Assembly: GCA_965218975.1 (NCBI GenBank) | Contig: OZ244717.1 | Coordinates: 896,001-960,000 of the forward strand | From: Candidatus Oxydemutatoraceae bacterium | Lineage (GTDB): Bacteria; Pseudomonadota; Gammaproteobacteria; Poriferisulfidales; Oxydemutatoraceae | Reading direction: 5' to 3' | Length of the DNA: 64,000 nt | In this document: positions 10,738-53,200 of the stretch, piece by piece | Layout: each line of letters begins with the position of its first letter | Position numbering within the stretch: position 1 is the stretch's first letter | Position numbers and translations under genes: made by a program | The notes under the pieces: model-generated | Databases searched by the model: none | Told to the model about the DNA's origin: nothing | Seen by the model: the letters and a program-made list of their open reading frames with translations, nothing else

Positions 10738-10813
10738 TGGTGGGTCGTATAGGATTCGAACCTATGACCATCGGATTAAAAGTCCGGTGCTCTACCAACT
10801 GAGCTAACGACCC
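10738..10813 (-). tRNA. tRNA-Lys (UUU)
   Basis: Reverse complement GGGTCGTTAGCTCAGTTGGTAGAGCACCGGACTTTTAATCCGATGGTCATAGGTTCGAATCCTATACGACCCACCA: 76 nt, cloverleaf, anticodon TTT, encoded CCA. Confidence 0.97.
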
Positions 10814-15977: not shown

Positions 15978-16016
15978 TGTACGATGCCACCCTAAATGGG
16001 ATTTTTGAAGGGCTTC
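15978..16016 (+). repeat. 39-bp putative transposon end (TGT...), inverted copy at 30948-30986
   Basis: tgtacgatgccaccctaaatgggatttttgaagggcttc matches the reverse complement of 30948-30986 at 37/39. Confidence 0.8.
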
Positions 16017-16082
16017 AGGGGAAGCGTTCGGCAGTAACATTCGGATCGGTGCTTTCTGTCCGTTGCCAGCATGAGGACGGTG

Positions 16083-16402
16083 CAGGGTGAGACGCGCCCG
16101 GAAAACCGATCGGTTTTCAGTGGCGAACGATCCGACAAGGACGTCGGGGCTGGCGTTTATTGACAGAACCAAGTTTCGTCATGGACGAGCAGGGTGAGAC
16201 GCGCCCGGAAAACCGACTGGTTTTCAGCGGCGAACGACCCGACAAGGACGTCGGGGCTGGCGCTCATTGACAGAACCAAGTCTCGTCATGGACGAGCAAG
16301 GTGAGACGCGCCCGGAAAACCGACTGGTTTTCAGTGGCGAACGACCCGACAAGGGCGTCGGGGCTGGCGTTTATTGACAGAACCAAGTCTCGTCATGGAC
16401 GA
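16083..16402. repeat. Tandem array A: 3 x 107-bp palindrome-rich unit
   Basis: Units start at 16083, 16190, 16297; internal hairpins gaaaaccg-at-cggttttc and cccgac-aaggac-gtcggg. Confidence 0.93.
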
Positions 16403-16651
16403 CAGGCACTTTGCCGAAAATCCAGCAACAAACACAAAATGGTTTCATAACCGGTCATTGAATGCTTCCGTATCGGCGAATAGCAGGTCTTCTGCATGAT
16501 CAATACAATCTTCTTGGACGATGCGGTTGAAGCGCTCGATGTGCGCGTTCATTTTTGGACACTTGGGATAGGTCAGCCACTGCTCAATCACGGGTGATTC
16601 CCGGATGAGCTGGGCAAACTGTCCTTGAAACTCACTCCCGCCGTCCGTCAG
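16403..16651 (-). pseudogene. IS481-like (rve integrase core) transposase fragment
   Basis: LTDGGSEFQGQF...TYPKCPKMNAHIERFNRIVQED matches the TDNGSEF and P..N..ERFNRT..EE motifs; N-terminal part absent. Confidence 0.8.
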
Positions 16652-16967
16652 GGTGAGACGCACCCGGAAAACCGATCGGTTTTCAGCGGCGAACGACTCG
16701 ACAAGGACGTTGGGGCTGGCGCTCATTGACAGAACCAAGTCTCGTCATGGACGACAGGGTGAGACGCGCCCGGAAAACCGATCGGTTTTCAGCGGCGAAC
16801 GACCCGACAAGGACGTCGGGGCTGGCGCTCATTGACAGAACCAAGTCTCGTTATGGACGAGCAGGGTGAGACGCGCCCGGAAAACCGATCGGTTTTCAGT
16901 GGCGAACGACCCGACAAGGGCGTCGGGGCTGGCGTTTATTGACAGAACCAAGTCTCGTCATGGACGA
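16649..16967. repeat. Tandem array B: 3 x 106-107-bp unit, same family as array A
   Basis: Units start at 16649, 16755, 16862; the whole block duplicates 16083-16648 with a 566-bp period. Confidence 0.93.
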
Positions 16968-17077
16968 CAGGCACTTTGCTGAAAATCCAGCAACAAACAC
17001 AAAACGGTTTCATAACCGGTCATTGAATGCTTCCGTATCGGCGAATAGCAGGTTTTCTGCATGAATCAATACAATCT

Positions 17078-31031: not shown

Positions 31032-31066
31032 TTGACAACTGTTATCTGTTAACTATATAGTTAACA
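31032..31066 (+). promoter_or_regulatory. Candidate sigma70 promoter overlapped by a perfect 20-bp palindrome (operator)
   Basis: TTGACA 31032-31037, 18-bp spacer, TATAGT 31056-31061; palindrome tgttaactatatagttaaca at 31047-31066. Confidence 0.65.
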
Positions 31067-31319: not shown

Positions 31320-32189
31320 ATGGTGAAAAACACGTTGCTCTTCCTCGTATTGTTCCTACTGGTGTTTGCCGAAGCAGCAAGCGCGCAAATGACGACTTTT
31401 CTTGTAGAGGACCAGATTGTGCCGGCATCGTCGCGAGATGCCGGTTGGACTCTAGGAGACTTTGACGTACAGCCGCCTATTCGCCCGTATGCGGATCAAG
31501 TGGTTCCTAACGGTGCCGGAATGATTCATCCGGAATTAGCCGATTTGGATGGGGATGGCCCCGAAACAATCGGTGTGGTAGATTGGGTGGAAGTTCAAGT
31601 GCGAGTTGTGCCGCGGGATGCGGATGATCCTCCTCTGGCGAGAAGGGGCCCGACCGTAGTGCATACCAGAGCCTTAGCTAAGGCAGGCTTGCTTCTAAGC
31701 AACGGCTGGATTATCGATGCGGATACTGATTTAAACGCCCTTGATTTGAATGACCTCCACAACGCTGTGCTGACATTTGACGAAGCGTTTGATATGGAAA
31801 GAGAGAAGATATACATTGCTGTCGCGCATCGCAATCATCTGGCGGTTATGTCTTCAAGGAGTCTCGGTGCGGAAGATATAAGCGATGGCGGCACGATTAC
31901 TTATGATTTCTCATCGAGCGCCGAACAGACATTCGGTGGTTTGGGGTCCACCGGCACTGGCGGTGCGACAAAATTCGCAACGAATGCCGGTGTGTTCATG
32001 ATGGCGGTCGGCAACTTGGATGGTAATCGGACGGTTAATATTGCCGATGTAACAGCGCTACGAGAAAGATTAACTCTCGGAGTAGGCCCGTATGATGCTG
32101 CCAACCTTGATTTTAATCGTGCGGTGAACCTAGGCGATGATACGTTAGGGCAGGCAAGTATAGGTTTTTCAACACAGATATTTTATTGA
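31320..32189 (+). CDS. Secreted protein with HRNHL-type domain and dockerin-like Ca-binding loops
   Basis: Sec signal (..AEAASA/Q); VDWV.V.VR, GLLL.NG.I.D, YIAV.HRNHL.VMS, YDFS; two EF-loop-like repeats GNLDGNRTVNIAD and ANLDFNRAVNLGD. Confidence 0.8.
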   Translation: MVKNTLLFLVLFLLVFAEAASAQMTTFLVEDQIVPASSRDAGWTLGDFDVQPPIRPYADQVVPNGAGMIHPELADLDGDGPETIGVVDWVEVQVRVVPRDADDPPLARRGPTVVHTRALAKAGLLLSNGWIIDADTDLNALDLNDLHNAVLTFDEAFDMEREKIYIAVAHRNHLAVMSSRSLGAEDISDGGTITYDFSSSAEQTFGGLGSTGTGGATKFATNAGVFMMAVGNLDGNRTVNIADVTALRERLTLGVGPYDAANLDFNRAVNLGDDTLGQASIGFSTQIFY

Positions 32190-32234
32190 TCAATTTATGA
32201 ATGGCTGTGATTTCTTTAACTTGCAACAAGACAA

Positions 32235-35200
32235 ATGCGGATGTTCGGTAACATTAGCAGTGTAGTCAAAGTTTTTAGCGTGGCGGCATTCATCGCTATA
32301 GCGCCTGCTTTGGAAGCGCAATTTACTCCTCAAGATTCTCCCGGTGATACGGACCCGACATTTTTATCGCAGATGGTAGGGACGCGAGACAATCAAGATT
32401 GCTCAGCGGAGGAAGGGATACAATGTCGTTACGGGATGGATGTACGCTTTGGCAATGTCCGGGTGGAAGCAGGGCTTTTTCGGTTTGAGATTCAGCTCAG
32501 AGCGCAGAGGGCAGCAGACGGCGAGCCTAATGGCACGCTTCCTGTCAGTGCGACAGCGCTAGGCAATGTTCTAAATTCCTCACAAATGTATATCCGCTAT
32601 AAGTTGATCCATAGCAGCGAGGCATCTGTTTGGGGAGAGAACGCCGCCGCTGTCAGCCCTACCAACAACCCTACAGGCGCATGCCGCGCAGCGCTCGGTG
32701 CGGACCTAGGCGCCACCCTAACGAACGATAATTCTCAGTTCCTGACAGCGTTTTATAGCTTCCGGGTTTATGGTAATGAGGAGTTTGAGGAGAACTTGAT
32801 GACGCTTGGAAACGCGTCCATATATTCAAGCTTGGGTCCGAATTCCCCCTTAGTGTCAGGGCTAGCGGGGTATTTTATATTGGATGACGAAGCCTATAAA
32901 ACAGTCATGAATGTCGGTTGTGCGATTTCACCCGAGGTGGTGGCAGCGGGTCGTCGGGCAGAGATGACGTTTCATTCCTTTGGCTTCAACGTTGCGTCTC
33001 AACTATGGGATATGAACAGATTCTCTAGGTATGCAGTGCGTGCAGTCAATAATCTGGAGTATGTTCCGCTCGATGGGGTTTCCGCTTATATTGAACATGC
33101 CCGCTTGGCGGATACCAACCGGCACGCGTTGATTCGATTTAACACCGATTTACCGGACGAAGATGTCGTCACAACGACTGCGTCTTATACGGTAGCACGT
33201 TTCTTTGACGGTTCCGCACCGGCGGTTTCATTTGCCGCTGAAAATGTTCTCAAACTGGACGCGAGGACCGTATGGGTAACATTTCCGGAGACGTTCGCAA
33301 CAGCTGTCAGCGACTCGTTTTTGGAAAATGTGTTGCTGCGGGCGACCTTCACCGGACAGGACAGCTACATCGCCGCGGTTTACGGGAATGAAGCGCTGTA
33401 CCGTGTCGGAGTTTTGTATGGAAACGAAGCCTCCGGCTCTCAATTTACTCCGCCAAGAATTGCTCAAGCGACTATTAGTGAGGATAACCGGACGGTTGAG
33501 CTTGTTTTTTCGGTGCCCGTGTCGAGCAATGCGCAAGGGGATGAGATACTGGTGCCGGAAGACTTTGAGGTTGTTTTTTACCCGGGCATTTCTGCGAGGT
33601 CAAGCAGCATTGTCGAAGTAACTCAAGTGGAGGAGGTTGATCCGAGCAGGTATAGATTGACACTAGATATCGAGGGTGCGGATCTTGGCGAAATCACCGG
33701 AGACGAATACTTGCTGATTAAAGGCGCTGAAAGGAGTGAAACAGAATTTTACATCAGCACTGCGACAATTTTTAATCGGGAGCGTGTGCACAGAGACTTA
33801 ACTGAAGTACAGGTGGATGTGGCTGCTCTAGGTGTGGGAATGGCGACAGGCGATTATGGTGTCGGCATGCGCGACTTGCCAGGCAATGCGCTGCTACAAA
33901 TGCGCCGGTCGAGTGTTGACATCAACGTGGCACCGGTATTCAGCGATGCGGAAAGTTTTGAGGTCAACGAAGGGCAGACGGTAGTGGGCACGGTGACGGC
34001 TGAGGATGCGAACATAGAAGACGAGGCAATGTATTTGATTACCGACGGTGCGGATCAAGCTCAGTTCACAATTGACCCGTCTTCGGGCGAGTTGAGATTC
34101 ACAACCGCACCGGACTTTGAGAATCCGGCGGATGAGGGTGCGAATAACGTTTATATGCTCATCGTGACGGCGACCGGCGGCACGGACGCTCGGGCATTGA
34201 CAACAACGCAAGCGATTACGGTGACGGTGCTGGATGTGTCGACGACGGTCACGATTACGGCGGCGGAGCCGACGGTAACGGAAGGCGAGCCGGCGGTATT
34301 CGTGTTTGAGCGGACCGACGCGACGGATGCATCGACATTGACGGTGAACATTACGGTAGACGATTCCGGCGGAGTGCTTGCGGATGCGGAGCCTGATACG
34401 ATTACTTTTGACGCCGATTCTGCAACAGCGGCGCTTAACCTTGCCACCATTGATGATGCGTTTGACGAAGACGACAGCACGGTGACGGTTACCGTTGTCG
34501 CCGGTATAGTTTATGCGGTCGGCACTGAGAATAGCGCCGAGGTGCGAGTGGTCGACAACGATGATGCACCGGAGTTGGTTTTGTCTCAGACCACCGTTGA
34601 AGAAGGGGCTGAGATTACTATCTCTATAGATAACAGGAGGAACCAGTCGGTATTAGCGGTCACGTTCGAGTTTGACGGCACGGCGATGCCTGAGAACGAC
34701 TATATAGTAACGACGCTCGGAGGTTCACCGCTGTTGTCACCGTATAATGTGACTATTGAGATTTCTGCGCGGAACCGAGTTGCTGTACTAAGAATAAGGA
34801 CGGTAGACGACCAAGTGGACGAGGCAGATGAGACGATTGAGATAACCGCGCGGCATGAGGGCGGCATAATCGGCGAGGAAACGATTATGGTCATCGACAA
34901 CGATGCGCCGCCGGAGTTGGATTTGTCGGTGAGCGCGGTAATGATTGATGAAGGCGAATCGGTCGATATTACGCTAGAGATCACGAATGAATCGGTATAT
35001 GCCGAGAATCAAACGATCGCGTTAGAGTTTACCGGCAATGCGACGACTACTGCCGACTATACGGTTGACGGCTTGCTGCTACAGCTGCCGTCGTATGAGT
35101 TGACTTTACCGGCGGGAGAATCTGCGGCAAGCGCAACGATCATGGCGCTGATAGACGCCATGACGGCTGAGGGAGATGAGACTATTATGATTACCGCTCG

Positions 35201-38200
35201 GCATGAAGGCGAAATGATCGGCGACAAGGCAACAATCATGATCATTGATAACACGGCGCCGGTATTCAGTGATCCGGTAAGTTTTGCGGTCAACGAAGGG
35301 CAGACGACAGTGGGCATGGTGACGGCTGCGGATGCGAACACGGAAGACGAGGTGACGTATTCGGTTACCGGCGGTGCGGATGAGACCTTGTTCGCCATTG
35401 ACGACCCGTCTTTGGGCGAGTTGAGTTTCGTCACTGCACCGGACTTTGAGAATCCGGTGGATGCGGGTGAAGACAACAACTACATGCTCATCGTGACGGC
35501 GACTGGCGGCACGGACGCTCGGGAATTGACGACGACAGAAGCGATTACAGTGATGGTGCTTGATGTGGATGAGTCGACGGTAACGATCACAGCGGACAAG
35601 GCGTCGGTGACGGAAGGCGAGCAGGCGATGTTCACGCTTGAGCGGACTGCGCCGACGGATGTGGAATTATTGGTGAGAATCACGGTAGGGGACCCCGGCG
35701 GAGTGCTTGCAGCAGCGGCGCCTGAAATGGTTACTTTTGACGCCGGTTCTACAACAGCGGCGCTCAGTCTTGCCACCATTGATGATATGATTGACGAAGC
35801 CGACAGCACACTGACGGTTACCGTTGTCGCCGGTATAGTTCATGAGGTCGGTATTGAGAATAGCGCTGAGGTGCGGGTGATTGACGTCAACGTGGCACCG
35901 GTATTCAGTGATGCGGTAAGTTTTGAGGTCAACGAAGAGCAGACGATAGTGGGCACGGTGACGGCTGCGGATGCGAACACGGAAGACGAGGTGACGTATT
36001 CGGTTACCGGCGGTGCGGATGAGACCTTGTTCGCCATTGACGACCCGTCTTCGGGCGAGTTGAGATTCACAACCGCACCGGACTATGAGAATCCGATGGA
36101 TGCGGATACGGATAACGTTTATACGCTCACCGTGACGGCGACCGGCGGCACGGACGCTCGGGCATTGACAACAACGCAAGCGATTACGGTGACGGTGCTG
36201 GATGTGCCGACTACAATTACAATTACAGCGGACGAGGCAGAGGTCACAGAAGGCGAACCGGCGATGTTTACACTCAGCCGGACAGACGCGACGGATGCGC
36301 CGGCATTGACAGTGAACATTACGGCAGTTGAGATCGGCGAAGTGCTTGCGGATGCGGCGCCTAGTACGGTGACTTTTGACGCCGGTTCTGCGACAGCGGA
36401 GCTCAGTCTTGCTACCGTCATTGATGAGATGATTGGCGACAGAACGGTGACGGTTACCGTGAACGCCGGTGTGGGTTATGCGGTCGGTAGTGAGAATAGC
36501 GCCGAGGTGCGGGTGATCGACATCAACGTGGCGCCGGTATTCAGCAGTTCGGAAAGTTTTGCGGTCAACGAAGGGCAGACGATAGTGGGCACGGTGACGG
36601 CTGCGGATGCAAACACGGAAGACGAGGTGACGTCGTATTCGGTTACCGGCGGTGCGGATGGTGCCTTGTTTACCTTCGCCGACCCATCTTTGGGCGAGTT
36701 GAGTTTCGTCACTGCACCGGACTATGAGAATCCGACGGATGCAGATACGGATAACGTTTATACGCTCACCGTGACGGCAATCGGCGGCACGGACGCTCGG
36801 GCGTTGACGGCGACGCAAGCGATTACGGTGACGGTGCTTGATGTGCCTATGACGATCACGATTACGGCAGACGATACAGAGGTCACGGAAGGCGAACCGG
36901 CGATGTTTACACTCAGCCGGACCGACGCGACGGATGCACCGGTATTGGCGGTAAACATTACGGCAGTTGAGGTCGGCGAAGTGCTTGCGACTGCAGCGCC
37001 TAGTACGGTTACTTTTGCTGCCGATTCTGCGACAACGATGCTCAGCCTTGCCACCGTCATTGATGATACGTTCGGCGTCAGAACGGTGACGGTTACCGTG
37101 AACGCCGGTGTGGGTTATGAGGTCGGTATTGAGAATAGTGCTGAGGTGCGAGTGGTTGACGTCAACGTGGCGCCGGTATTCAGCAGTTCGGAAAGTTTTG
37201 CGGTCAACGAGGGGCAGACGGTAGTCGGCACGGTGACGGCTGCGGATGCGAATCCGGGAGACGAGGTAACGTATTCGATTACCGGCGGTGCGGATGAGAC
37301 CTTGTTCGCCATTGACGACCCGTCTTCGGGCGAGTTGAGATTCACAACCGCACCGGACTTTGAGAGTCCGGCGGATGCGGATACGAACAACAACTACATG
37401 CTCATCGTGACGGCAATCGGCGGCACGGACGCTCGGGCGTTGACAACAACGCAAGAGATTGAGGTGACGGTGCTGGATGTGCCGACTACAATTACGATTA
37501 CGGCGGACGAGGCAGAGGTCACAGAAGGCGAACCGGCGATGTTTACACTCAGTCGGACCGACGCGACGGATGCGCCGGCATTGACAGTGAACATTACGGT
37601 AGATGCGACCGTCGGAGTGCTTGCGACTGCGGCGCCTAGTACGGTGACTTTCGACGCCGGTTCTGCGACAACGGAGTTTAGTCTTGCCACTGTCATTGAT
37701 GAAATGATTGGCGACAGAACGGTGACGGTTACCGTGAACGCCGGTGTGGGTTATGCGGTCGGGATTGAGAATAGCGCTGAGGTGCGGGTGATTGACATCA
37801 ATGTGGCGCCGGTATTCAGTGATGCGGTAAGTTTTGCGGTCAACGAAGGGCAGACGATAGTGGGCACGGTGACGGCTGCGGATGCAAACACGGAAGACGA
37901 GGTGACGTCGTATTCGGTTACCGGCGGTGCGGATGGTGCCTTGTTTACCTTCGCCGACCCATCTTTGGGCGAGTTGAGTTTCGTCACTGCACCGGACTAT
38001 GAGAATCCGACGGATGCAGATACGGATAACGTTTATACGCTCACCGTGACGGCAATCGGCGGCACGGACGCTCGGGCGTTGACGGCGACGCAAGCGATTA
38101 CGGTGACGGTGCTTGATGTGCCTATGACGGTCACGATTACGGCAGACGATACAGAGGTCACGGAAGGCGAGCTGGCGGTGTTCACGTTCAGCCGGACCGA

Positions 38201-41200
38201 CGCGACGGATGCACCGGTATTGGCGGTAAACATTACGGCAGTTGAGGTCGGTGAAGTGCTTGCGACTGCAGCGCCTAGTACGGTTACTTTTGCTGCCGAT
38301 TCTGCGACAACGATGCTCAGCCTTGCCACCGTCATTGATGATACGTTCGGCGTCAGAACGATGACGGTTACCGTGAACGCCGGTGTGGGTTATGAGGTCG
38401 GTATTGAGAATAGCGCCGAGGTGCGAGTGGTTGACGTCAACGTGGCGCCGGTATTCAGCAGTTCGGAAAGTTTTGCGGTCAACGAAGAGCAGACGATAGT
38501 AGGCACGGTGACGGCTGCGGATGCAAACACGGAAGACGAGGTGACGTCGTATTCGGTTACCGGCGGTGCGGATGGTGCCTTGTTTACCTTCGCCGACCCA
38601 TCTTCGGGCGAGTTGAGTTTTGCCACTGCACCGGACTTTGAGAATCCGGCGGATGCGGATACGAACAACAACTACATGCTCATCGTGACGGCGACCGGCG
38701 GCACGGACGCTCGGGCGTTGACAACAACGCAAGAGATTGAGGTGACGGTGCTGGATGTGCCGACTACAATTACGATTACGGCGGACGAGGCAGAGGTCAC
38801 AGAAGGCGAACCGGCGATGTTTACACTCAGCCGGACAGACGCGACGGATGCGCCGGCATTGGCGGTAAACATTACGGTAGATGTGACCGTCGGAGTGCTT
38901 GCGGATGCGGCGCCTAGTACAGTGACTTTCGACACCGGTTCTGCGACAACGATGCTCAGCCTTGCCACCGTCATTGATGATACGTTCGGCGTCAGAACGG
39001 TGACGGTTACCGTGAACGTCGGTGTGGGTTATGAGGTCGGTATTGAGAATAGCGCCGAGGTGCGGGTTGTCGACGATGATCTGCTGCCGGACTTGGTTTT
39101 GTCGGTGAGCGCGACCACCATTGATGAAGGGGCATCAGCCGATATTACAATAGAGATCAAGAACGATTCGGTATTTACCGAAGATCAAACGATCACGTTA
39201 GAGTTTGACGGCGATGCGACGCCTGAGGAGGACTATGCGGTATTGGTTGAGAATTTACCGCTGTCGCCACCGTATGAGTTGATTTTGCCGGCGGGGGCAT
39301 CTGCGACAGTCGCAACGATAATGGCGAAGGCAGCCGACATGACGGATGAGGGGGATGAGACAATTATGATTACCGCCCGGCATGGTGGCGACACGATCGG
39401 CGAAGAGACGATCACGATCATTGATAACGTGGCGCCGGTATTCATCAGTGCGGCAAGTTTCGAGGTCAACGAGGGGCAGACGCTAGTCGGCACGGTAGTG
39501 GCTGAGGATGCCAATAGCCTAGACGATGTTCTGTACGTGGTTCAATCTAATGACTCTAATGACTCGTCGCCGGATAGCGCTCTGTTTTCAATCCTCTCGC
39601 TCACAGGCGTACTGAGATTCGAGACGGCGCCGGATTTTGAGGCTCCGGCAGATGCGGATATGAACAACGAATACATAATTACTATTTTGGCGTCCGATTT
39701 CAATGGGAGCCTAAGCAATCAAGGGTTAACGGCACGCCAAAGAGTTACCGTTATGGTGCGTAATGTGGTTGAGTCGACGGTAACGGTTACAGCGAACCAG
39801 GCGTCGGTGACGGAAGGCGAGTCGGCGATGTTCACGTTGGCTCGGACCGTGCCGACGGATACGGAATTAATGGTGAAGATTACGGTAGATGATCCCGGCG
39901 GAGCGCTTGCAACTGTAGCGCCTGAAATGGTTACTTTTGATGCCGGTTCTACGACAGCGGCACTCAGTCTTGTTACTATTGATGATGCGTTTGACGAAGC
40001 CGACAGCACACTGACGGTTACCGTTGTCGCCGGTATAGTTCATGAGGTCGGTATTGAGAATAGCGCTGAGGTGCGGGTAGTTGACGATGATCTGCTGCCG
40101 GAGTTGGTTTTGTTGGTGAGCGCGACCACCATTGATGAAGGGGCATCAGCCGATATTACAATAGAGATCAAGAACGATTCGGTATTTACCGAAGATCAAA
40201 CGATCACGTTAGAGTTTGACGGCGATGCGACGCCTGAGGAGGACTATGCGGTATTGGTTGAGAATTTACCGCTGTCGCCACCGTATGAGTTGATTTTGCC
40301 GGCGGGGGCATCTGCGACAGTCGCAACGATAATGGCGAAGGCAGCCGACATGACGGATGAGGGGGATGAGACAATTATGATTACCGCCCGGCATGGTGGC
40401 GACACGATCGGCGAAGAGACGATCACGATCATTGATAACGTGGCGCCGGTATTCATCAGTGCGGCAAGTTTCGAGGTCAACGAGGGGCAGACGCTAGTCG
40501 GCACGGTAGTGGCTGAGGATGCCAATAGCATAGACGATGATATCGCGTATGGAATTTTTGTTAATCCCTCGTATCTGGATAGCATTCTGTTTCCAATTTT
40601 AATCCACCAGTTCACAGGCGTACTGAGATTCGAGACGGCGCCGGACTTTGAGGCTCCGGCAGGTGCGGATATGAACAATGAGTACGTGTATGCTATTACG
40701 GCGAACAGTAGCAGAGGCACCGGTCGAGCGTTAACGACATTCCAAACGATTACCGTTATGGTGCGTAATGTGGTTGAGTCGACGGTAACGGTTACAGCGA
40801 ACCAGGCGTCGGTGACGGAAGGCGAGCCGGCGATGTTCACGTTGGCTCGGACCGTGCCGACGGATACGGAATTAATGGTGAAGATTACGGTAGATGATCC
40901 CGGCGGAGCGCTTGCAACTGTAGCGCCTGAAATGGTTACTTTTGATGCCGGTTCTACGACAGCGGCACTCAGTCTTGTTACTATTGATGATGCGTTTGAC
41001 GAAGCCGACAGCACGCTGACGGTTACCGTTGTCGCCGGTATAGTTCATGAGGTCGGTATTGAGAATAGCGCCGAGGTGCGGGTTGTCGACGATGATCTGC
41101 TGCCGGACTTGGTTTTGTCGGTGAGCGCGACCACCATTGATGAAGGGGCATCAGCCGATATTACAATAGAGATCAAGAACGATTCGGTATTTACCGAAGA

Positions 41201-44200
41201 TCAAACGATCACGTTAGAGTTTGACGGCGATGCGACGCCTGAGGAGGACTATGCGGTATTGGTTGAGAATTTACCGCTGTCGCCACCGTATGAGTTGATT
41301 TTGCCGGCGGGGGCATCTGCGACAGTCGCAACGATAATGGCGAAGGCAGCCGACATGACGGATGAGGGGGATGAGACAATTATGATTACCGCCCGGCATG
41401 GTGGCGACACGATCGGCGAAGAGACGATCACGATCATTGATAACGTGGCGCCGGTATTCATCAGTGCGGCAAGTTTCGAGGTCAACGAGGGGCAGACGCT
41501 AGTCGGCACGGTAGTGGCTGAGGATGCCAATAGCCTAGACGATGTTCTGTACGTGGTTCAATCTAATGACTCTAATGACTCGTCGCCGGATAGCGCTCTG
41601 TTTTCAATCCTCTCGCTCACAGGCGTACTGAGATTCGAGACGGCGCCGGATTTTGAGGCTCCGGCAGATGCGGATATGAACAACGAATACATAATTACTA
41701 TTTTGGCGTCCGATTTCAATGGGAGCCTAAGCAATCAAGGGTTAACGGCACGCCAAAGAGTTACCGTTATGGTGCTTGATGTGCCTACGACGATTACGAT
41801 TACGGCGGACAAAGCAGAGGTTACGGAAGGCGAGCCGGCGGTGTTTACATTCAGTCGGACCGACGCGACGGATGCGCCGGCATTGACAGTGAACATTACG
41901 ATAGATGCGACCGACGAAGTGCTTGCGGATGCGGCGCCTGGTATGGTGACTTTTGACGCCGGTTCTGCGAGAACGGTGCTTAGCCTTGCCACCGTCATTG
42001 ATGAGGCGTTTGGTGTCAGAACGGTGATGGTTACCGTGAACGACGGTGTGGGTTATGAGGTCGGTATTGAGAATAGCGCCGAGGTGCGGGTGATTGACGT
42101 CAACGTGGCACCGGTATTCAGCAGTGCGGAAAGTTTTGAGGTCAACGAAGGGGAGACGGTAGTCGGCACGGTGACGGCTGAGGATGCGAACATAGAAGAC
42201 GAAGTGACGTATTCGATTACCAACGGCGCGGATCAAGATCAGTTTACTATTAACTCGTCTTCGGGCGAGTTGAGTTTCGTCACCGCACCGGACTTTGAGA
42301 ATGCAGCGGATGCGGACGGAGACAATGCATACATGCTCACGGTGGCGGCAATCGGCGGCACGGACGCTCGGGCGTTGACGACGACGCAAGCGATTATGGT
42401 GACGGTGCTTGATGTGCCGACGACGATTACGATTACGGCAGACGAGCCGATGGTAACGGAAGGCGAGTCGGCGATGTTCACATTCAGCCGGACCGACGCG
42501 ACGGATGCGCCTGCATTGACGGTGAACATTACGGTAGATGATCCCGAGGGGGTGCTTGCGGCAGCGGCACCTGAAATGGTGACTTTTGCTGCCGATTCTG
42601 CGACAACGGCGCTCAACCTTGCCACCATTGATGATACGCTTGAAGAAGACGACAGCACGGTGACGGTTACCGTGAACGACGGTGTGGATTATGCGGTCGG
42701 TATTGAGAATAGTGCCGAGGTGCGGGTGAACGACAACGACGGGCCGTTCACGATCTCGTTCGTCCAGAGCGAATATACGTTCAATGAAAGGGACTCGGTA
42801 GTTGTCATGATCAGACTGAGCGGCGAAAGACCGCTGCGCGGCGCTGTAAGCGCTACTATCTCGACAATGGAAGGCAGCGCGCTCCATCCTGAGGATTATA
42901 CCCTGGTTAATTCTAGGTTTTCATTCGGCCCTAGCGATTCTATCCCTGCGCTGCGTTCTGAATCTCTTTCTCGTATCAATGACGCGATTTTCGAGACCGA
43001 AGAATTCTTTTCGGTGAGAATTAGATCTGTAATGGCATCGGATCCCGCCGATGAGGTGGTGATCGGTCAGGGCGAAGCGACGATTACCATCATTGATAAC
43101 GATTCGCCTCCTATCTGGAGTTTAGACATGTTGCCGAGTAGTGTCAGTGAAAGTAGGGACACCGCGGTGCCGATTGTGATGAAGCGGATGCGTGATTTAC
43201 TTGACAGAGGATATCCGCTGACGCTTGAGTTGGGGGGGACGGCGACGTTCGGCGAAGACTACGTTATCACGGATATGGATGACAATCCGTTCGCGTTACC
43301 GCTTACATTCCCTGCGCCGTATATTGCCGATGATGTGTTTGATCTTCGGACAGATAAAACAGTCGAATTCGGCTTAGTGATAACAGACGACGCGGTGTTT
43401 GAGGGAGCCGAGACGATTGAGCTGCGATTAACTACGACGGACCCTGACGTTACGATAGGCAGCGATACGACTCAGACGATCACGATCATTGACGACGATA
43501 CGACGCCGGTGTTGTCTCTGTCGGTGAGTGCGACCACCATTGAAGAGGGAGCATCGGTCGATATTACAGTGATGACGAACGAGTCGGTATATGCCGAAGA
43601 TCAAACGATCACGTTAGAGTTTGCCGGCGATGCGATGCCTGAGGACGACTATACGGTAATGGTCGACAGCTTGCCGCTGTCGTCGCCGTATGAGTTAACT
43701 TTGCCGGCGGGGTTGTCTTCGGTAACCGCAACGATCATGGCGACAGACGACCGAGCGGACGAAGCGAATGAGACGATCACACTAACCGCCCGGCATGAAG
43801 GCGACACAATCGGCGAGGAAACGATCACGATCATTGACGATGATGCGGCGCCGGAGTTGGATTTGTCGGTGAGCGAGACCACCATCGACGAAGGGGCATC
43901 GGGCGATATCGAAGTGGGAATCACGAACGAATCGGTATTTGCCGAAGATCAAACGATTACGTTAGAGTTTGCCGGCGAGGCGACGCCTGAGGACGACTAT
44001 ACGGTAATGGTCGGAGGTTCGTTGCTGTCGTCGCCGTATCAAGTGATTTTACCGGCGGGGTCGTCTTCGGTAAGCGCAATGATCATGGCGCTAATAGACG
44101 ACATGACGGCTGAGGGGAATGAGACGATTATGATTACCGCCCGGCATGAAGGTGAAATGATCGGCGAGGTAACGATCACGATCATTGATAACACGGCGCC

Positions 44201-47200
44201 GGTCTTCAGCGATGCGGTAAGTTTTGAGGTCGACGAAGGACAGACGACGGTCGGCGTTGTGACGGCTGAGGATGCGAACCCGCAAGACGAGGCAATGTAT
44301 TCGGTTACCGGCGGTGCGGATGATGCCCTGTTTGATATCGACTCGTCTTCGGGTGAATTGAGTTTCGTCACCGCGCCGGACTTTGAGAATGCGGTGGATG
44401 CGGATACGGATAACGTTTATATGCTCATCGTGACGGCGATCGGCGGCACGGACGCTCGAGCGTTGACGACGACGCAAGAGATTACGGTGACGGTGCTTGA
44501 TGTGCCGACGACGGTCACGATTACGGCGGCGGAGCCGACGGTAACGGAAGGTGAGCCGGTAATGTTCACGTTTGAGCGGACCGACGCGACGGATGCGCCG
44601 GCATTGACGGTGAACATTACGATAGATGCGACCGACGAAGTGCTTGCGGATGTGGCGCCTGGTATGGTGACTTTCGACGCCGGTTCTGCGAGAACGGTGC
44701 TTAGCCTTGCCACCGTCATTGATGAGGCGTTTGGCGTCAGAACGGTGATGGTTACCGTGAACGACGGTGTGGGTTATGAGGTCGGTATTGAGAATAGCGC
44801 CGAGGTGCGGGTGATTGACGTCAACGTGGCACCGGTATTCAGCAGTGCGGAAAGTTTTGAGGTCAACGAAGGGGAGACGGTAGTCGGCACGGTGACGGCT
44901 GAGGATGCGAACATAGAAGACGAAGTGACGTATTCGATTACCAACGGCGCGGATCAAGATCAGTTTACTATTGACTCGTCTTCGGGCGAGTTGAGTTTCG
45001 CCACCGCACCGGACTTTGAGAATGCAGCGGATGCGGACGGAGACAATGCATACATGCTCACGGTGGCGGTAATCGGCGGCACGGACGCTCGGGCGTTGAC
45101 GACGACGCAAGCGATTATGGTGACGGTGCTTGATGTGCCGACGACGATTACGATTACGGCAGACGAGCCGATGGTAACGGAAGGCGAGCCGGCGGTGTTC
45201 ACGTTCAGCCGGACCGACGCGACGGATGCGCCTGCATTGACGGTGAACATTACGGTAGACGATTCCGGCGGAGTGCTTGCGGATGCGGCGCCTGATACGA
45301 TTACTTTTGACGCCGATTCTGCGACAACGGTGCTCAACCTTGCCACCATTGATGATACGCTTGAAGAAGACGACAGCACGGTGACGGTTACCGTGAACGA
45401 CGGTGTGGATTATGCGGTCGGTATTGAGAATAGTGCCGAGGTGCGGGTGAACGACAACGACGGGCCGTTAACGATCTCGTTCGTCACGACCGAGTATATG
45501 GTCAATGAAAGCGATAGAGAGGTAAGGTTCGAACTCAGACTGAGCGACGAAAGACCGCTGCGCGGCAATATAAACGTTGGCTTAACGGCACGCGACGGCA
45601 GCGCGGTCCTTACTGAGGATTATTCCCCGAGAGGTAGTGTTACTATCTATACTCCTATATCAGTTCTGATGAGAACTGTGCAGTATTTCATTATCGATGA
45701 CGATGTCTTCGAAACCGAAGAATTCTTTTCGTTGAGGATTTCCGGTGTAACGACGTTTCATAGCGACGATGAGGTGGTGATCGGTCAGGGGCGCGTAGCG
45801 ACGGTTACCATCATTGATGACGATTTGCCTCCTATCTGGAGTTTGGACATGTTGCCGAGTAGTGTCAGTGAAAGTAGGGACACCGCGGTGCCGATTGTGA
45901 TGAGGCGGATGCGTGATTTACTTGACAGAGGATATCCGCTGACGCTTGAGTTGGGGGGGACGGCGACGTTCGGCGAAGACTACGTTATCACGGATATGGA
46001 TGACAATTCGTTCGCGTTACCGCTTACATTCCCTGCGCCGTATATTGCCGATGATGTGTTTGATCTTCGGACAGATAAAACAGTCGAATTCCGCTTAGTG
46101 ATAACAGACGACGCGGTGTTTGAGGGAGCCGAGACGATTGAGCTGCGATTAACTACGACGGACCCTGACGTTACGATAGGCAGCGATACGACTCAGACGA
46201 TTACGATCATCGACAACGATGCGGTGCCGGTGTTGTCTCTGACGGTCGGTGCAACCGCAATCAATGAAGGCGCATTGACCGATATCGAAGTGGGAATCAC
46301 GAACGAGTCGGTATATGCCGAAGATCAAACGATCACGTTAGAGTTTGCCGGCGATGCGATGCCTGAGGACGACTATACGGTAATGGTCGGAGATTCGCCG
46401 TTGTCATCGCCGTATGTGTTGACTTTGCCGGCGGGGTTGTCTTCGGTAAGCGCAACGATCATGGCGACAGACGACATGACGGCTGAGGGGAATGAGACGA
46501 TCACACTAACCGCCCGGCATGAAGGCGACACGATCGGCGAGGCAATGATTACGATCATTGACGATGATGCGGCGCCGGAGTTGGATTTGTCGGTGAGCGA
46601 GACCACCATTGACGAAGGAGTATCAGCCGATATTACGCTAGAAATCACGAACGAATCGGTATTTGCCGAGAATCAAACGATTACGTTAGAGTTTGACGGC
46701 ACGGCAACGGAGGATGACTATACGCTATCGGCTGAGAATTTACCGCTGTTGCCGCCGCATGAGTTGATTTTACCGGCGGGGTCGTCTTCGGTAAGCGCAA
46801 TGATCATGGCGCTAATAGACGACATGACGGCTGAGGGGAATGAGACGATTATGATTACCGCCCGGCATGAAGGCGAAATGATCGGCGAGGTAACGATCAC
46901 GATCATTGATAACACGGCGCCGGTCTTCAGCGATGCGGTAAGTTTTGAGGTCGACGAAGGACAGACGACGGTCGGCGTTGTGACGGCTGAGGATGCGAAC
47001 CCGCAAGACGAGGCAATGTATTCGATTACCGGTGGGGCGGATGATGCCCTGTTTGATATTGACTCGTCTTCGGGTGAGTTGAGTTTCGCCACCGCACCGG
47101 ACTTTGAGAATGCGGCGGATGCGGATACGGATAACGTTTATGTGCTCACGGTGACGGCAATCGGCGGCACGGACGCTCGAGCGTTGACGACGACGCAAGA

Positions 47201-50200
47201 GATTACGGTAACGGTGCTTGATGTGCCTACGACGGTCACGATTACGGCGGCGGAGCCGACGATAACGGAAGGCGAGTCGGCGGTGTTTACATTCAGTCGG
47301 ACCGACGCGACGGATGCGCCGGCATTGACGGTGAACATTACGATAGATGCGACCGACGAAGTACTTGCGGATGCGGCGCCTGAAATGGTGACTTTCGACG
47401 CCGGTTCTGCGAGAACGGTGCTTAGCCTTGCCACCGTCATTGATGAGGCGTTTGGCGTCAGGACGGTGATGGTTACCGTGAACGACGGTATGGGTTATGA
47501 GGTCGGTATTGAGAATAGCGCCGAGGTGCGGGTGATTGACGTCAACGTGGCACCGGTATTCAGCAGTTCGGAAAGTTTTGAGGTCAACGAAGGGCAGACG
47601 GTAGTCGGCACGGTGACGGCTGAGGATGCGAACATAGAGGACGAGGTGATGTATTCGATTACCAACGGCGCGGATCAAGATCAGTTTACTATTGACCCGT
47701 TTTCGGGCGAGTTGAGTTTCGCCACCACACCGGACTTTGAGAATCCGGCGGATGCGGATACGGATAACGTTTATATGCTCATCGTGACGGCAGTCAGCGG
47801 CACGGACGCTCGGGCATTGACGACGACGCAAGAGATTGCGGTGACGGTGCTTGATGTGCCGACGACGATCACGATTACGGCAGAAGACCCGACGGTCACG
47901 GAAGGCGAGCCGGCGGTGTTCACGTTCAGCCGGACCGAGGCGACGGATGCGCCTGCATTGACGGTGAACATTACGGTAGACGATTCCGGCGGAGTGCTTG
48001 CGGATGCGGCGCCTGATACGATTACTTTTGCTGCCGATTCTGCGACAACGGCGCTCAGTCTTGCCACCGACGACGATACGCTTGAAGAAGACGGCAGCAC
48101 GGTGACGGTTACCGTCATAGGCGGTATGGATTATGCGGTCGGTATTGAGAACAGTGCTTCGGTGCGGGTTGTCGACAACGACGTTAACGTGGCGCCGGCA
48201 TTCATCAGTGCAGCAAGTTTTGATGTCAACGAAGGGGAGACGGTAGTCGGTACGGTGACGGCTGCGGATGCGAACATAGAAGACGAGGTGATGTATTCGA
48301 TTACCGGCGATGCGGATGATGTTTTGTTTGCAATTGACCCGTCTTCGGGCGAGTTGAGTTTCGCCACCGCACCGGACTATGAGAATCCGGCGGATGCGGA
48401 TACGGATAACGTTTATATGCTCATCGTGACGGCAACCGGCGGCACGGACGCTCGGGCGTTGACGACGACGCAAGCGATTACGGTGACGGTGCTTGATGTG
48501 CCTACGACGATTACGATTACGGCGGCAGAGCCGATGGTAACGGAAGGCGAGCCGGCGGTGTTCGTGTTTGAGCGGACCGACTCGACGAATGTGTCGGAAT
48601 TGAATGTGTTCTTTACGGTAGATGATCCCGGCGGAGTGCTTGTGCTTCCAAAGCCTTTTGCTCTTTCTTTTGGAGCTGCTGGAGCTGCTTCCGAGACAGC
48701 GATGCTCAGCCTTGCCACCATTGATGACGCGCTTGAAGAAGACGACAGCACGGTGACGGTTACCGTTGGTGCCCATATGAATTATGAGGTCGGCATTGAG
48801 AATAGTGCCGAGGTGCGGGTTGTCGACAACGACGTCAACGTGGCGCCGGCATTCATCAGTGCAGCAAGTTTTGAGGTCAACGAAGGGGAGACGGTAGTCG
48901 GCACGGTGACGGCTGCGGATGCGAATATAGAAGACGAGGTGACGTATTCGGTTATCGGCGGTGCGGATGATGCCTTGTTTGATATCGACTCGTCTTCGGG
49001 CGAACTGAGCTTCACAACCGCACCGGACTATGAGAATCCGGTGGATGCGGATGAAGACAATAACTACATGCTCACGGTGGTGGCAATCGGCGGCACGGAC
49101 GTTCGGACGTTGACGACGACGCAAGCGATTACGGTGACGGTGCTTGATGTGCCTACGACGATCACGATTACGGCGGCAGAGCCGATGGTAACGGAAGGCG
49201 AGCCGGCGGTGTTTACATTCAGTCGGACCGACGCGACGGATGCGCCGGTATTGGCGGTGAACATTACGGTAGATGATTCCGACGGGGTGCTTGCGGCAGC
49301 GGCACCTGAAATGGTGACTTTTGACGCCGGTTCTGCGATAACGGTGCTCAACCTTGCCACTATTGATGATACGCTTGAAGAAGACGACAGCACGGTGACG
49401 GTTACCGTTGTTGCCACTACGGATTATGAAGTCGGTATTGAGAACAGTGCTTCGGTGCGGGTTGTCGACAACGACGTCAACGTAGCGCCGGTATTCACCA
49501 GTGCAGCAAGTTTTGAGGTCAACGAAGGGCAGACAGTAGTCGGCACAGTGACGGCTGCGGATGTGAACATAGAGGACGAGGTGATGTATTCGATTACCGG
49601 CAGCGCGGATCAAGATCAGTTTACTATTGACCCGTCTTCGGGTGAGTTGAGTTTCGCCGCTGCACCGGACTTTGAGAATCCGACGGATGCGGACGGAGAC
49701 AATGCATACATGCTCACAGTGGCGGCAATCGGCGGCACGGACGTTCGGGCGTTGACGACGACGCAAGCGATTACCGTCAGAGTGCTTGATTTGCCGGTAA
49801 TAACGATTGCGGCAGTCGAGCCGATGGTAACGGAAGGCGAGCCGGCGGTGTTCGTGTTTGAGCGGACCGACGCGACGGATGTGTTGGATTTGTTTGTGTT
49901 CTTTACGGTAGTTGAGTCCGGCGAGGTGCTTGTGGTTCCAACGCCTGCTGGTATTTCTTTTAGACCTGCTTCCGAGACAGTGATGCTCAGCGTTGCCACC
50001 ATTGATGATACGCTTGAAGAAGACGACAGCACGGTGACGGTTACCATTGGTGTCGACGATACGGGTTTTTATGAAGTCGGTATTGAGAACAGTGCCGAGG
50101 TGCGGGTTGTCGACAACGACGTCAACGTAGCGCCGGTATTTACGAGTGCGGAAAGTTTTGAGGTCAACGAAGGGCAGACGTTAGTCGGCACGGTGACGGC

Positions 50201-53200
50201 TGAGGATGCGAACATGGGGGATGAGGTGACCTATTCGGTTACTGGCGGTGCGGATGGCACCCTGTTCACCATTGACCCGTCTTCGGGCGAGTTGAGTCTC
50301 GCCACTGCACCGGACTATGAGAATCCGGCGGATGCGGATACGGATAACGTTTATATGCTCACGGTGGCGGCAATCGGCGGCACGGACGCTCGAGCGTTGA
50401 CGACGACACAAGGGATTACGGTGACGGTGCTTGATGTGCCTACGACGATCACGATTACGGCGGACAAAGCAGAGGTTACGGAAGGCGAGCCGGTAATGTT
50501 TACATTCAGTCGGACCGACGCGACGGATGCGCTTGCATTGGCGGTGAACATTACGGTAGATGATCTCGACGGGGTGCTTGCGGCAGCGGCACCTGAAATG
50601 GTGACTTTTGCTGCCGGTTCTGCGACAGCGGAGCTCAGTCTTGCCACCGACGACGATACGCTTGAAGAAGACGACAGCGTAGTGACGGTTACCATCATAG
50701 ACAGTGCGGACTATAGGATCGGTATTGAGAACAGTGCTTCGGTGCGTGTTGTCGACGACGACGTCAACGTGGCGCCGGCATTCATCAGTGCAGCAAGTTT
50801 TGAGGTCAACGAAGGGCAGCCAGTAGTCGGTACGGTGACGGCTGCGGATGCGAACATAGAAGACGAGGTGATGTATTCGATTACCGGCGATGCGGATGAT
50901 GCCCTGTTTGATATCGACTCGTCTTCGGGCGAGTTGGGTTTCGCCACTGCACCGGACTTTGAGAATGCAGCGGATGCGGATACGGATAACGTTTATATGC
51001 TCATCGTGACGGCAACCGGCGGCACGGACGCTCGGGCGTTGACGACGACGCAAGCGATTACGGTGACGGTGCTTGATGTGCCTACGACGATTACGATTAC
51101 GGCGGCAGAGCCGATGGTAACGGAAGGCGAGCCGGCAGTGTTCGTGTTTGAGCGGACCGACTCGACGAATGTGTCGGAATTGAATGTGTTCTTTACGGTA
51201 GATGATCCCGGCGGAGTGCTTGTGCTTCCAAAGCCTTTTGCTCTTTCTTTTGGAGCTGCTGGAGCTGCTTCCGAGACAGCGATGCTCAGCCTTGCCACCA
51301 TTGATGATGCGCTTGAAGAAGACGACAGCACGGTAACGGTTACCGTTGGTGCCCATATGAATTATGAGGTCGGCATTGAGAATAGTGCCGAGGTGCGGGT
51401 TGTCGACAACGACGTCAACGTGGCACCGGTATTCAGCGATCCGGTAAGTTTTGAGGTCAACGAAGGGGAGACGGTAGTCGGCACGGTGACGGCTGAGGAT
51501 GCGAACCCGCAAGACGAGGTGAGGTATTCGGTTACCGGCGGTGCGGATGATGCCCTGTTTGATATCGACTCGTCTTCGGGCGAACTGAGCTTCACAACCG
51601 CACCGGACTATGAGAATCCGGCGGATGCGGATACGGATAACGTTTATATGCTCATCGTGACGGCGGCCGGCGGCACGGGTGCTCGGGCGTTGACGACGAC
51701 GCAAGAGATTACGGTGACGGTGCTTGATGTGCCGACTACAATTACGATTTTTGCTGACGAACCGACGGTAACGGAAGGCGAGCTGGCGGTGTTCACGTTG
51801 AATCGGACCGCGCCGACGGATACGGGATTATTGGTGGAGATTGAGGTAGTTGATTCCCCCGACGGAACGGTAGTCGGTAACCCCGGTGGAGCGCTTATGG
51901 TTTTGATACCTGATATGATTACTTTTAGGGCCGGTTCTACGACAGCGGTGCTCAGTCTTGCCACCATTGATGATATGATTGATGAAGCCGACAGCACGCT
52001 GACGGTTACCGTTGTTGAAGGGATGAGTTATGAGGTTGGTATCGAGAATAGCGCCGAGGTGCGGGTTGTCGACAACGATGACGTACCGGGTGCGCCGGCG
52101 GAATTAGCAGCCGCAGCGGGCGACACGCACGCAGTCCTAAGTTGGGAAGCGCCTGCCGACCCCGGCACTTCGCCGATTGAGCGTTACGAATATCGCGCGA
52201 GCAGTGACGCCGGAACGATTGGGGATCAGGAATGGAATGCCGCCGGCGATGCGACGGGCGAAGTCAGAACTCAAATCGTATCGAGCTTAAGCAACGACAC
52301 GGAATACACATTTGAAGTACGCGCGGTCAGCGCGGCGGGCAACGGTGCAGCCGCGCAAATCACGGCGACACCGAGTTCCGAGACGGCGGTATTCACTCTG
52401 ACGTTTGACCCGAGCGAATATACGCTCACTGAAAGTGACCAGAGGGTAACTCTCACGCTCAGACTGATCGGCGAAGAGCGTGCGCTGCAAGATGATGTAA
52501 CCGTTACTGTCTCGACACACGACGGCAGCGCGGTCACTCCTCAGGATTATGTGGCTATTGAGAATGCGACGGTTGTCTTTGAACCCGAAGAGGGCGTGAC
52601 CGAGTTAACGCAAACGGTGACGGTTCAGATTGTCAATGACATCGTTTTTGAGTTAGATGACGAGATCTTTTCGGTGATTATTAACGATGTAACGGCGGCG
52701 ACTTCCAGCGACACGGTCGTGATTGATCAAGGCGAAGCGACGGTTACCATCGTCGATGACGGCGGCCCACCGATTTGGGTATTGGACCGGTTGCCGAGTT
52801 CTGTCGGTGAAAGCACGGGCACCGTGTCGATTGAGATGAGGCGCGTGTCGATTGTTAATTCTGATACTAACCGCGGGTATTCGCTGACGCTTGAGCTGGG
52901 AGGGACGGCGACGTTCGGCGACGACTACGTCATCACGGATATAGACGGCAATCCGTTGGCGTCGCCGCCTACATTCGATATAGCGCAAAACCAAACAATG
53001 CTTGAAGCCCGCCTGATAATAACGGACGATAGGGTGTTTGAGGGCGAGGAGACGATTGAGATACGCTTGAGCACGACCGAGCCGAAGATCCTGATAGACG
53101 ACGCTACGACGCAGACGATCACGCTCATCGACAACGATGCAGCGCCGGAGTTAGATTTGTCGGTGAGTGCGGTAGCGATTGACGAAGGGGCATCGGTTGA

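Follow-up and report, generated by a model that had tools for sequence, protein, structure and literature searches.

A candidate docking pair of a dockerin-like module and a giant cadherin-repeat adhesin in a gammaproteobacterium, with related gene pairs in Bacteroidota

Pairs of cohesin and dockerin are a textbook means of joining modules on bacterial surfaces and are much used in protein engineering, and in clostridial cellulosomes the assembly is anchored by S-layer homology (SLH) repeats. A 2009 survey by Peer and colleagues is reported to have found dockerin-like modules widespread outside cellulose degraders, often on proteins unlinked to polysaccharide breakdown, and is not known to have proposed a receptor besides cohesin. 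Here we analyzed a stretch of 64,000 nucleotides (nt) from a Candidatus Oxydemutatoraceae bacterium (assembly GCA_965218975.1, contig OZ244717.1, positions 896,001 to 960,000), hereafter the window. In this window a small gene, encoding a secreted protein of 289 amino acids (aa) named P0001, is followed on the same strand by a giant gene, whose product of at least 10,588 aa is a cadherin-repeat adhesin with a conserved N-terminal domain (N-domain). We tentatively suggest that the products of the two genes dock on each other at the cell surface, where the small module would sit on the N-domain of the giant, and we rate this reading a little short of an even chance.

The nearest described counterpart is the type II X-module-dockerin (XDoc) of CipA with its type II cohesins, borne by anchoring proteins, from Clostridium thermocellum (Protein Data Bank (PDB) entries 2b59, 5g5d, 4fl4 and 3kcp). 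Like that module, P0001 is modelled as a sandwich followed by a duplicated dockerin of calcium loop and helix. The likeness extends to the position of the module at the C-terminus of cohesin scaffolds (5 of the 34 module proteins scanned, and locus L026) and to a candidate receptor on a protein with a cell-anchoring end. In contrast to the clostridial module, the sandwich found here has its own DW, HRNHL and YDF motifs and no Pfam family. P0001 falls below the Pfam dockerin threshold, and none of the sequence tests identifies the candidate receptor as a cohesin. The hosts are Gram-negative, the module of the window carries no cargo, and anchoring would be achieved by the type IX secretion system (T9SS) or by a C-terminal sorting tail. 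A second group for comparison comprises the giant Sec-dependent repeat adhesins with a choice-of-anchor domain and a tail of PEP-CTERM, GlyGly-CTERM or MYXO-CTERM type. Shorter homologues of the giant resemble them in having a choice-of-anchor U domain and a Gly-rich, hydrophobic and Arg-rich tail, but these homologues match the tail models only below threshold.

In Cloacimonadota, dockerin-bearing enzymes of the glycoside hydrolase (GH) families GH18 and GH57 and the peptidase families S8 and C25 were inferred for 'Ca. Stygibacter', together with a cohesin scaffold anchored by a C-terminal domain (CTD) (PMC8542988). Bacteroidales loci with the present module likewise contain GH57 and Peptidase_C25 cargo, cohesins and tails of T9SS type. 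However, the accessible part of that paper treats dockerins and cohesins as defined by Pfam and InterPro, and there the HRNHL sandwich, the N-domain, the gene order and a proteobacterial form are not mentioned. Pfam dockerins were also noted in Bacteroidales single-cell genomes in another study (PMC10266427). Our full-text literature search found no description of the HRNHL sandwich, the N-domain, their gene order or the proteobacterial form. Only the dockerin side of the system is familiar. As far as the literature could be searched, there is no description of the receptor candidate, of the sandwich or of the adhesin context.

The small protein contains the motifs VVDWVEVQVRVV (residues 86-97), GLLLSNGWIID (123-133), HRNHLAVMS (170-178) and YDFS (195-198), and ends in two calcium loops of 12 residues each, NLDGNRTVNIAD (residues 232-243, nt 32013-32048) and NLDFNRAVNLGD (residues 262-273, nt 32103-32138). 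An earlier reading of the window made without database searches (the sequence-only reading) had quoted these motifs as well as DVRFGNVRVEAGLFRFEIQLRA and LNSSQMYIRY in the giant protein. All of them were recovered, and the two loops fall inside the intervals it had given (32010-32048 and 32100-32141). No Pfam or NCBIfam family matched the small protein above threshold. The best match in a sequence search of the PDB was an ornithine-cyclodeaminase-like protein with an expectation value (E) of 0.13, which was taken as chance. In the ESM Atlas the nearest clusters carried no names, and in one of them Dockerin_1 was found on 19% of the members.

Relatives of P0001 are numerous. A phmmer search of 1.84 billion representatives (50% clustering) retrieved at least 150 at E<=1e-3 and 25 at E<=1e-10. 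Many are free-standing proteins of ~280-340 aa, and others are long proteins that end with this region. The alignment of 58 relatives shows no change at D88, W89 or G129, and R95, H170, R171, N172, H173, S178 and F197 are kept in 53-57 of the sequences, so the motifs are not a product of chance. Asp or Asn occupies position 1 of the first and second calcium loops in 51 and 57 of the 58 sequences, position 3 in 47 and 50, position 5 in 51 and 48, and position 12 in 57 and 54, respectively. Over the sandwich region none of the 58 matches any Pfam family; over the tail, Dockerin_1 is matched by five at E<=0.01 (best 5.9e-6). As a separate observation, DW (88-89) and HRNH (170-173) of the sandwich are kept more strictly than the calcium loops, across two phyla and all types of cargo.

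An AlphaFold2 model of P0001 was built on the alignment of the 58 relatives (mean predicted local distance difference test (pLDDT) 82, predicted template modelling (TM) score 0.82). It displays a beta-sandwich over residues ~86-200, with strands at 86-98, 117-126, 151-154 and 162-169 among others (pLDDT ~90). Two helices follow, at 241-253 and 271-279 (pLDDT 93-97), each placed directly after a calcium loop. P0001 thus has two tandem EF-hand-type calcium loops with helices within ~60-70 residues. When the model was compared with the PDB by Foldseek, all of the top 10 matches were type II cohesin/X-module-dockerin entries from C. thermocellum (2b59_B, 5g5d_B, 4fl4, 3kcp and others), with probabilities of 0.87-1.00, E from 1.3e-3 to 5.9e-2 and ~200 aligned columns. 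From rank 11 onwards the probability was at most 0.12, except for rank 13, the isolated dockerin 2y3n_B (probability 0.95, TM-score 0.74, root-mean-square deviation (rmsd) 1.5 Å over 55 columns). The fold matches, the model and the EF-hand loop rule support the view that P0001 starts with a signal peptide and a short conserved strand, continues with an X-module-like sandwich from an undescribed family, and ends in a dockerin-like pair. The C-terminal ~65 residues are thus dockerin-like, and on this point the sequence-only reading is supported.

The distribution of the module was analyzed by scanning one genome per GTDB species, seeded with the 12 sequences closest to P0001. This gave 336 pattern matches and 246 confirmed relatives, the best 80 of which represent 75 loci. 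These loci belong mostly to metagenome-assembled genomes (MAGs) of Bacteroidales and other Bacteroidota, with a few from Chlorobiota. Five are from Pseudomonadota, namely L001 (Ca. Oxydemutatoraceae, Chromatiales), L006 and L031 (Chromatiales), L033 (Ca. Porisulfidus) and L072 (Burkholderiales). Two loci (L028 and L039) originate from a MAG labelled Thermoplasmatota; they otherwise resemble those of Bacteroidales, and the label may be a binning error.

A local hidden Markov model (HMM) of the family identified 120 open reading frames (ORFs) with the module in the 75 loci and the window. In 108 of them no more than 25 aa separate the end of the module from that of the ORF, and 15 (ORFs of at most 360 aa) consist of little else than the module. 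Such free-standing modules occur in some Bacteroidales and as six genes in four other gammaproteobacterial loci. The statement of the sequence-only reading that the HRNHL domain is typical of the C-termini of Bacteroidota and Ignavibacteria proteins was upheld, in that it is mostly C-terminal in proteins of Bacteroidota, Chlorobiota and Ignavibacteriota type. Its statement that the domain is not a free-standing proteobacterial gene was not, given these four loci. One of them (L033:7718-10699) has three tandem free-standing paralogues (339, 303 and 320 aa as stop-to-stop ORFs) before a giant-type gene; the window has one.

Cargo was analyzed with Pfam in 34 of the 120 module ORFs, the longest ones that fit a total of 50,000 residues. 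Peptidase_C25 (two proteins), Peptidase_C10 (one) and GH57 (two) were detected, as were CBM20, CBM48, CBM_4_9, beta-helix/NosD, PKD, fn3, Fib_succ_major, Laminin_G_3 and LTD domains, and Pfam Cohesin was present in five of the 34. The module is thus a C-terminal appendage of secreted cargo in the family, while P0001 itself has none. A choice-of-anchor J, D or Q domain precedes it in three of six module proteins analyzed with NCBIfam. Since the module is C-terminal in 108 of 120 ORFs, follows choice-of-anchor domains and is found with next to no T9SS tails, it appears to stand where a C-terminal anchor or docking device would.

The module was also considered as a sorting signal of T9SS type, and this was rejected: a T9SS tail was found in none of the six module proteins (NCBIfam and Pfam) and in two of the 34 scanned with Pfam, where the module is non-terminal in both. 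To our knowledge, Gammaproteobacteria have no T9SS. In four Bacteroidales arrays (L058:7031-17064, L059:7031-16354, L029:7160-16653 and L049:2984-7752), GH57 enzymes and other proteins that end in the module come after proteins of ~1160 aa, which combine four cohesin repeats with a module at the C-terminus. These arrays may represent a starch-directed, cellulosome-like set.

The second partner of the proposed pair is the N-domain of the giant. An HMM of five gammaproteobacterial N-domains weakly matched four Bacteroidales ORFs (E 2.8e-4 to 2.8e-3 among 2,946 ORFs), each time right after a signal peptide. An HMM with mixed seeds then detected 18 N-domain ORFs. Because its seeds match by construction, an independent check was made with hhalign, in which the gammaproteobacterial and Bacteroidales N-domain alignments were related with a probability of 95.7% (E 8.7e-9, 166 columns). 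Twelve of the 13 Bacteroidales N-domain proteins, with the contig-truncated one of L007 omitted, were scanned with NCBIfam. In seven of the 12 the protein terminates with a T9SS type A sorting domain at E<=1e-3, which scores above the curated cut-off in four. Several carry SprB repeats, InlB B-repeats, NIDO or LTD domains and therefore look like surface adhesins. By profile comparison, the N-domain of the giant is thus a homologue of the domain with which T9SS-anchored, adhesin-like Bacteroidales proteins begin.

The two families are linked by gene order. In the window the intergenic gap is 45 bp, no terminator-like site was found on the + strand between the two genes, and they therefore likely form one operon. 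As the sequence-only reading had stated, both genes have the same orientation and predicted Sec-type leaders. The leaders were judged by eye from the sequence and the aligned relatives, and show a hydrophobic core followed by ASA before Q in the small protein and by LEA before Q in the giant. The hydrophobic leader with A-x-A-Q is kept in the closest relatives of the small protein, and the leader of the giant is kept in its aligned homologues. Across genomes and phyla, a module gene in the same orientation immediately precedes 16 of the 18 N-domain ORFs, ending -150 to +600 nt upstream of them; the co-occurrence that the sequence-only reading had named as a check is thus observed. The two exceptions are L017, where the genes are convergent, and a 488-aa ORF (L039:6448-7911) in which the N-domain (70-289) and the module (266-487) are fused in one protein. 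Among control ORFs of at least 300 aa with neither domain, a module gene lies upstream in 34 of 340 (Fisher p 2.5e-13), and among all other ORFs of at least 300 aa in 58 of 447 (p 4.5e-12); the ORFs in these counts run from stop to stop, spurious ones included.

A FastTree phylogeny was calculated from 111 module copies (domain E<1e-10, more than 200 model positions covered). Of the 16 modules adjacent to an N-domain gene, 12 were placed in one set of 15 rows (Shimodaira-Hasegawa-like support 95), and the other three rows are tandem neighbours from the same arrays. The adjacency label changes 6 times on this tree versus 15.2 in shuffles, and none of 500 shuffles was as low, a contrast that near-copies inflate. 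The free-standing form lies beside an N-domain gene in five gammaproteobacterial genomes, at 26-39% identity, and in the Bacteroidales loci L036 and L050. Judged from these comparisons, the module family, the N-domain family and their linkage are real.

In the gammaproteobacterial relatives the layout of the window is repeated on the same strand with mostly shorter partners: a module gene of 295 aa and a large gene of 1591 aa in L001, a module gene and a large gene of 1550 aa in L006, module and large genes of 353 and 1362 aa in L031, and three tandem module genes before an ORF of at least 3338 aa, still open, in L033. The first ~580 residues of these four large proteins align with the giant at 21-24% identity. 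A further search added seven homologues of 920-1644 aa. A word-index search with giant residues 1-570 found none among proteins of 1751-5000 aa, which is a weak negative, since the relatives proved to be either 920-1644 aa or above 5000 aa long. No match to Pfam, NCBIfam or the PDB was obtained for residues 1-570 (0 hits in the PDB sequence search). Cadherin repeats start at residue ~573, with the first at 574-666, and 27 stretches of Pfam Cadherin in tandem (5, 14 and 8) were detected in the three pieces of the giant scanned (E 3e-53 to 5e-104). Calx-beta and fn3 domains are also present in the repeat region.

Four of the five shorter gammaproteobacterial homologues have a choice-of-anchor U domain near their end at E<=1e-5. 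Three are above the curated cut-off, P0157 is below it, and P0155 lacks the domain. All three tails that were read (P0155, P0156 and P0157) end in a Gly-rich, a hydrophobic and an Arg-rich stretch, with sub-threshold matches to MYXO-CTERM (E 0.0057), MprA GlyGly-CTERM (E 0.014) and PEP-CTERM (E 0.057) models. By analogy with these homologues, we infer that the N-terminal region of the giant would be its cell-distal end.

The following arrangement is proposed. Both proteins would be exported by Sec, and the giant would be held on the cell by its far C-terminus, as may be the case in its shorter relatives. The N-domain (~53-298) would then be located at the distal end of a long stalk of cadherin repeats. 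The 289-aa protein would be a bare docking module, made of a sandwich in the position of an X-module and a calcium-binding dockerin-like unit with two loops. It would attach to the N-domain non-covalently, probably in a calcium-dependent manner, and be the cap or tip subunit of the adhesin. In Bacteroidota, T9SS-anchored proteins with the N-domain at their start may receive enzymes and scaffolds through the module. The stalk of cadherin, Calx-beta and fn3 domains suggests adhesion as the role of the complex. A complex prediction for the N-domain with residues 24-289 of P0001 scored 0.00 in both runs; the fold of the partner is uncertain, and the result weighs neither way.

Several results weigh against the docking pair. 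Pfam Dockerin_1 (PF00404) misses P0001, with E 0.75 and 10.5 bits against a gathering cut-off of 22.9. The top 10 Foldseek matches are modest (target-normalised TM-score 0.29-0.54, rmsd ~6 Å, none at E<=1e-3), and a module free of cargo has no obvious use in the classical dockerin scheme. Most module genes (104 of 120) are not beside an N-domain gene, and the synteny p-values and the clustering on the tree overstate independence, since the module served to choose the loci and many of these are kin. The C-terminus of the giant itself is beyond the window, so the distal position of its N-terminus could be inferred by analogy only.

Nor did the sequence of the N-domain resemble cohesin, to which the sequence-only reading had likened it. 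Pfam Cohesin (PF00963) was matched by none of the 18 N-domains even at E<=10, and a PDB profile search with their alignment gave 0 hits. In the ESM Atlas the best score for the domain, 0.83, was at noise level. Compared by hhalign with six Pfam-verified cohesins from related loci, which represent one Bacteroidales cohesin type, the 18 N-domains reached a probability of 0.12% (E 0.47), and the Bacteroidales N-domains alone likewise reached 0.12%. An AlphaFold2 model of giant residues 1-600 (11 sequences) had a pLDDT of 47, with ~10 strands between 64 and 270, and its Foldseek matches were generic arrays of immunoglobulin (Ig)-like domains with TM-scores of at most 0.29. Membership of the N-domain in the cohesin family, as the sequence-only reading would have it, is therefore not supported by its sequence; the model speaks neither for nor against the nine-stranded jelly roll of cohesins.

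The alternative that survives best is that P0001 is a real X-dockerin-like module whose partner lies elsewhere, a true cohesin or a surface component encoded outside the window, with the adjacency reflecting shared regulation or a shared job. The dissimilarity of the N-domain to cohesin would fit this, and true cohesins do accompany the module in Bacteroidales, where Pfam detects them in five of the 34 module proteins scanned and a local HMM in nine Bacteroidales-type loci. Locus L026 (6570-13193) encodes in order a protein with Cohesin and a T9SS tail (571 aa), one with three Cohesins and the module (762 aa), and one with the N-domain, LTD and a T9SS tail (850 aa). The three consecutive genes resemble a layered scaffold, and their layout appears to fit a scaffold docking on the N-domain anchor and equally one docking on the cohesin anchor. 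From these nine loci and the gene order in L026, cohesins could be the real partner of the module in Bacteroidales loci, which is a further point against the docking pair. A precedent is also provided by the Cloacimonadota set, with inferred CTD-anchored cohesin scaffolds and dockerin-bearing GH57 and C25 enzymes (PMC8542988). However, Pfam detected no Cohesin (E<=1e-3) in the 10,588 aa of the giant that the window covers, and none was seen in the window as a whole or in the four gammaproteobacterial loci. Shared regulation would not call for a gene order as tight as that seen in two phyla (16 of 18), nor for the separate subgroup of modules beside N-domain genes or the N-domain/module fusion. 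We therefore regard a partner elsewhere as unlikely, though a serious competitor.

If the pair does dock and the N-domain is no cohesin, the N-domain may be a second, non-cohesin class of receptor for X-dockerin-like modules, common to the T9SS-anchored adhesins of Bacteroidota and the gammaproteobacterial giants, which in the latter would load a cargo-free cap onto the adhesin tip. The DW/HRNH site of the cap could in that case be a ligand-binding head. This extended form of the docking pair is doubtful, without being far-fetched.

The small protein could instead be an accessory factor that helps in folding, export or maturation of the giant, or an independent secreted calcium-binding lectin or adhesin with a ligand site at DW/HRNH, which we consider improbable. 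The stronger conservation of the sandwich compared with the dockerin part (D88, W89 and G129; H170-H173) fits a site of ligand-binding or catalytic type. P0001 lacks cargo, and the three tandem paralogues before the L033 giant gene recall diversified binding proteins. A dedicated adhesin helper, however, would hardly be attached, as the module is in 108 of 120 ORFs, to the C-terminus of unrelated enzymes and scaffolds. P0001 matched no family of enzymes or chaperones in Pfam, NCBIfam or the PDB, and its best fold matches are docking modules. Finally, it is very improbable that the adjacency is meaningless and the small gene a remnant module that lost its cargo and was transferred with the adhesin gene: free-standing modules are a minority (15 of 120) and the GC content of the pair (0.51 in the small gene, 0.55 in the bulk of the giant) exceeds that of the upstream housekeeping block (0.48), but the small gene is intact, with its own signal peptide and all residues conserved across the family, and the free-standing form is kept beside the N-domain gene in the five gammaproteobacterial genomes and in L036 and L050.

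Were the docking pair correct, a dockerin-type module with a different receptor would constitute a new orthogonal docking pair. It would account for the retention on the cell of numerous Bacteroidota enzymes that lack a T9SS tail, and would give a first clue to the construction of giant-adhesin tips in Gammaproteobacteria with small genomes. The analysis also adds two large uncharacterised families that have no Pfam or NCBIfam model, the module with at least 150 representatives (50% clustering) and the N-domain with members in two phyla. The features of the locus are collected in Table 1.

Table 1. Coordinates of the small gene, the giant gene and associated features in the window
Feature	Position	Strand	Remarks
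Sigma-70-like promoter match	31032..31061	+	TTGACA, 18 nt, TATAGT; 11/12 consensus positions
Small gene (P0001)	31320..32189	+	289 aa, ATG start; leader, N-terminal strand, beta-sandwich, dockerin-like pair
Sec signal peptide, small protein (predicted)	31320..31385	+	Residues 1-22; cleavage after ASA
Beta-sandwich, no known family	31569..31919	+	Residues ~84-200; VVDWV.V.R, LLLS.G, HRNHL and YDF motifs; X-module-like position
Dockerin-like module	31992..32186	+	Residues ~225-289; loop 1, helix, loop 2, helix
Giant gene	32235..63998	+	At least 10,588 aa; ORF still open at the 3' end of the window
Sec signal peptide, giant (predicted)	32235..32318	+	Residues 1-28; cleavage after LEA
N-domain, beta-rich, no known family	32391..33128	+	Giant residues ~53-298; candidate receptor for the small protein
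Rest of conserved N-terminal region	33129..33953	+	Residues ~299-573; probably 2-3 Ig-like domains; low-confidence model

Upstream of the pair, housekeeping genes are found (rpe, trp genes, COQ7 and an epimerase). The small gene is preceded by a spacer of 460 bp, which is richer in AT and contains the sigma-70-like site; the latter is a consensus match only, with 4 sites seen versus 2.8 expected. Within the giant gene (32235-63998) the GC skew is steadily positive. Long antisense ORFs, such as that at 35667-38732 (1021 aa), are also present and are most likely artefacts of composition.

At 17175-18878 on the - strand, an ORF of 567 aa encodes a DDE_Tnp_1 transposase (E 1.1e-13), probably an insertion sequence among the housekeeping genes. 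The GC content is 0.57 at 16001-18000, in the transposase stretch, versus ~0.47-0.50 around it. The sole Rfam match in the window is a tRNA gene at 10741-10813 on the - strand (77 bits).

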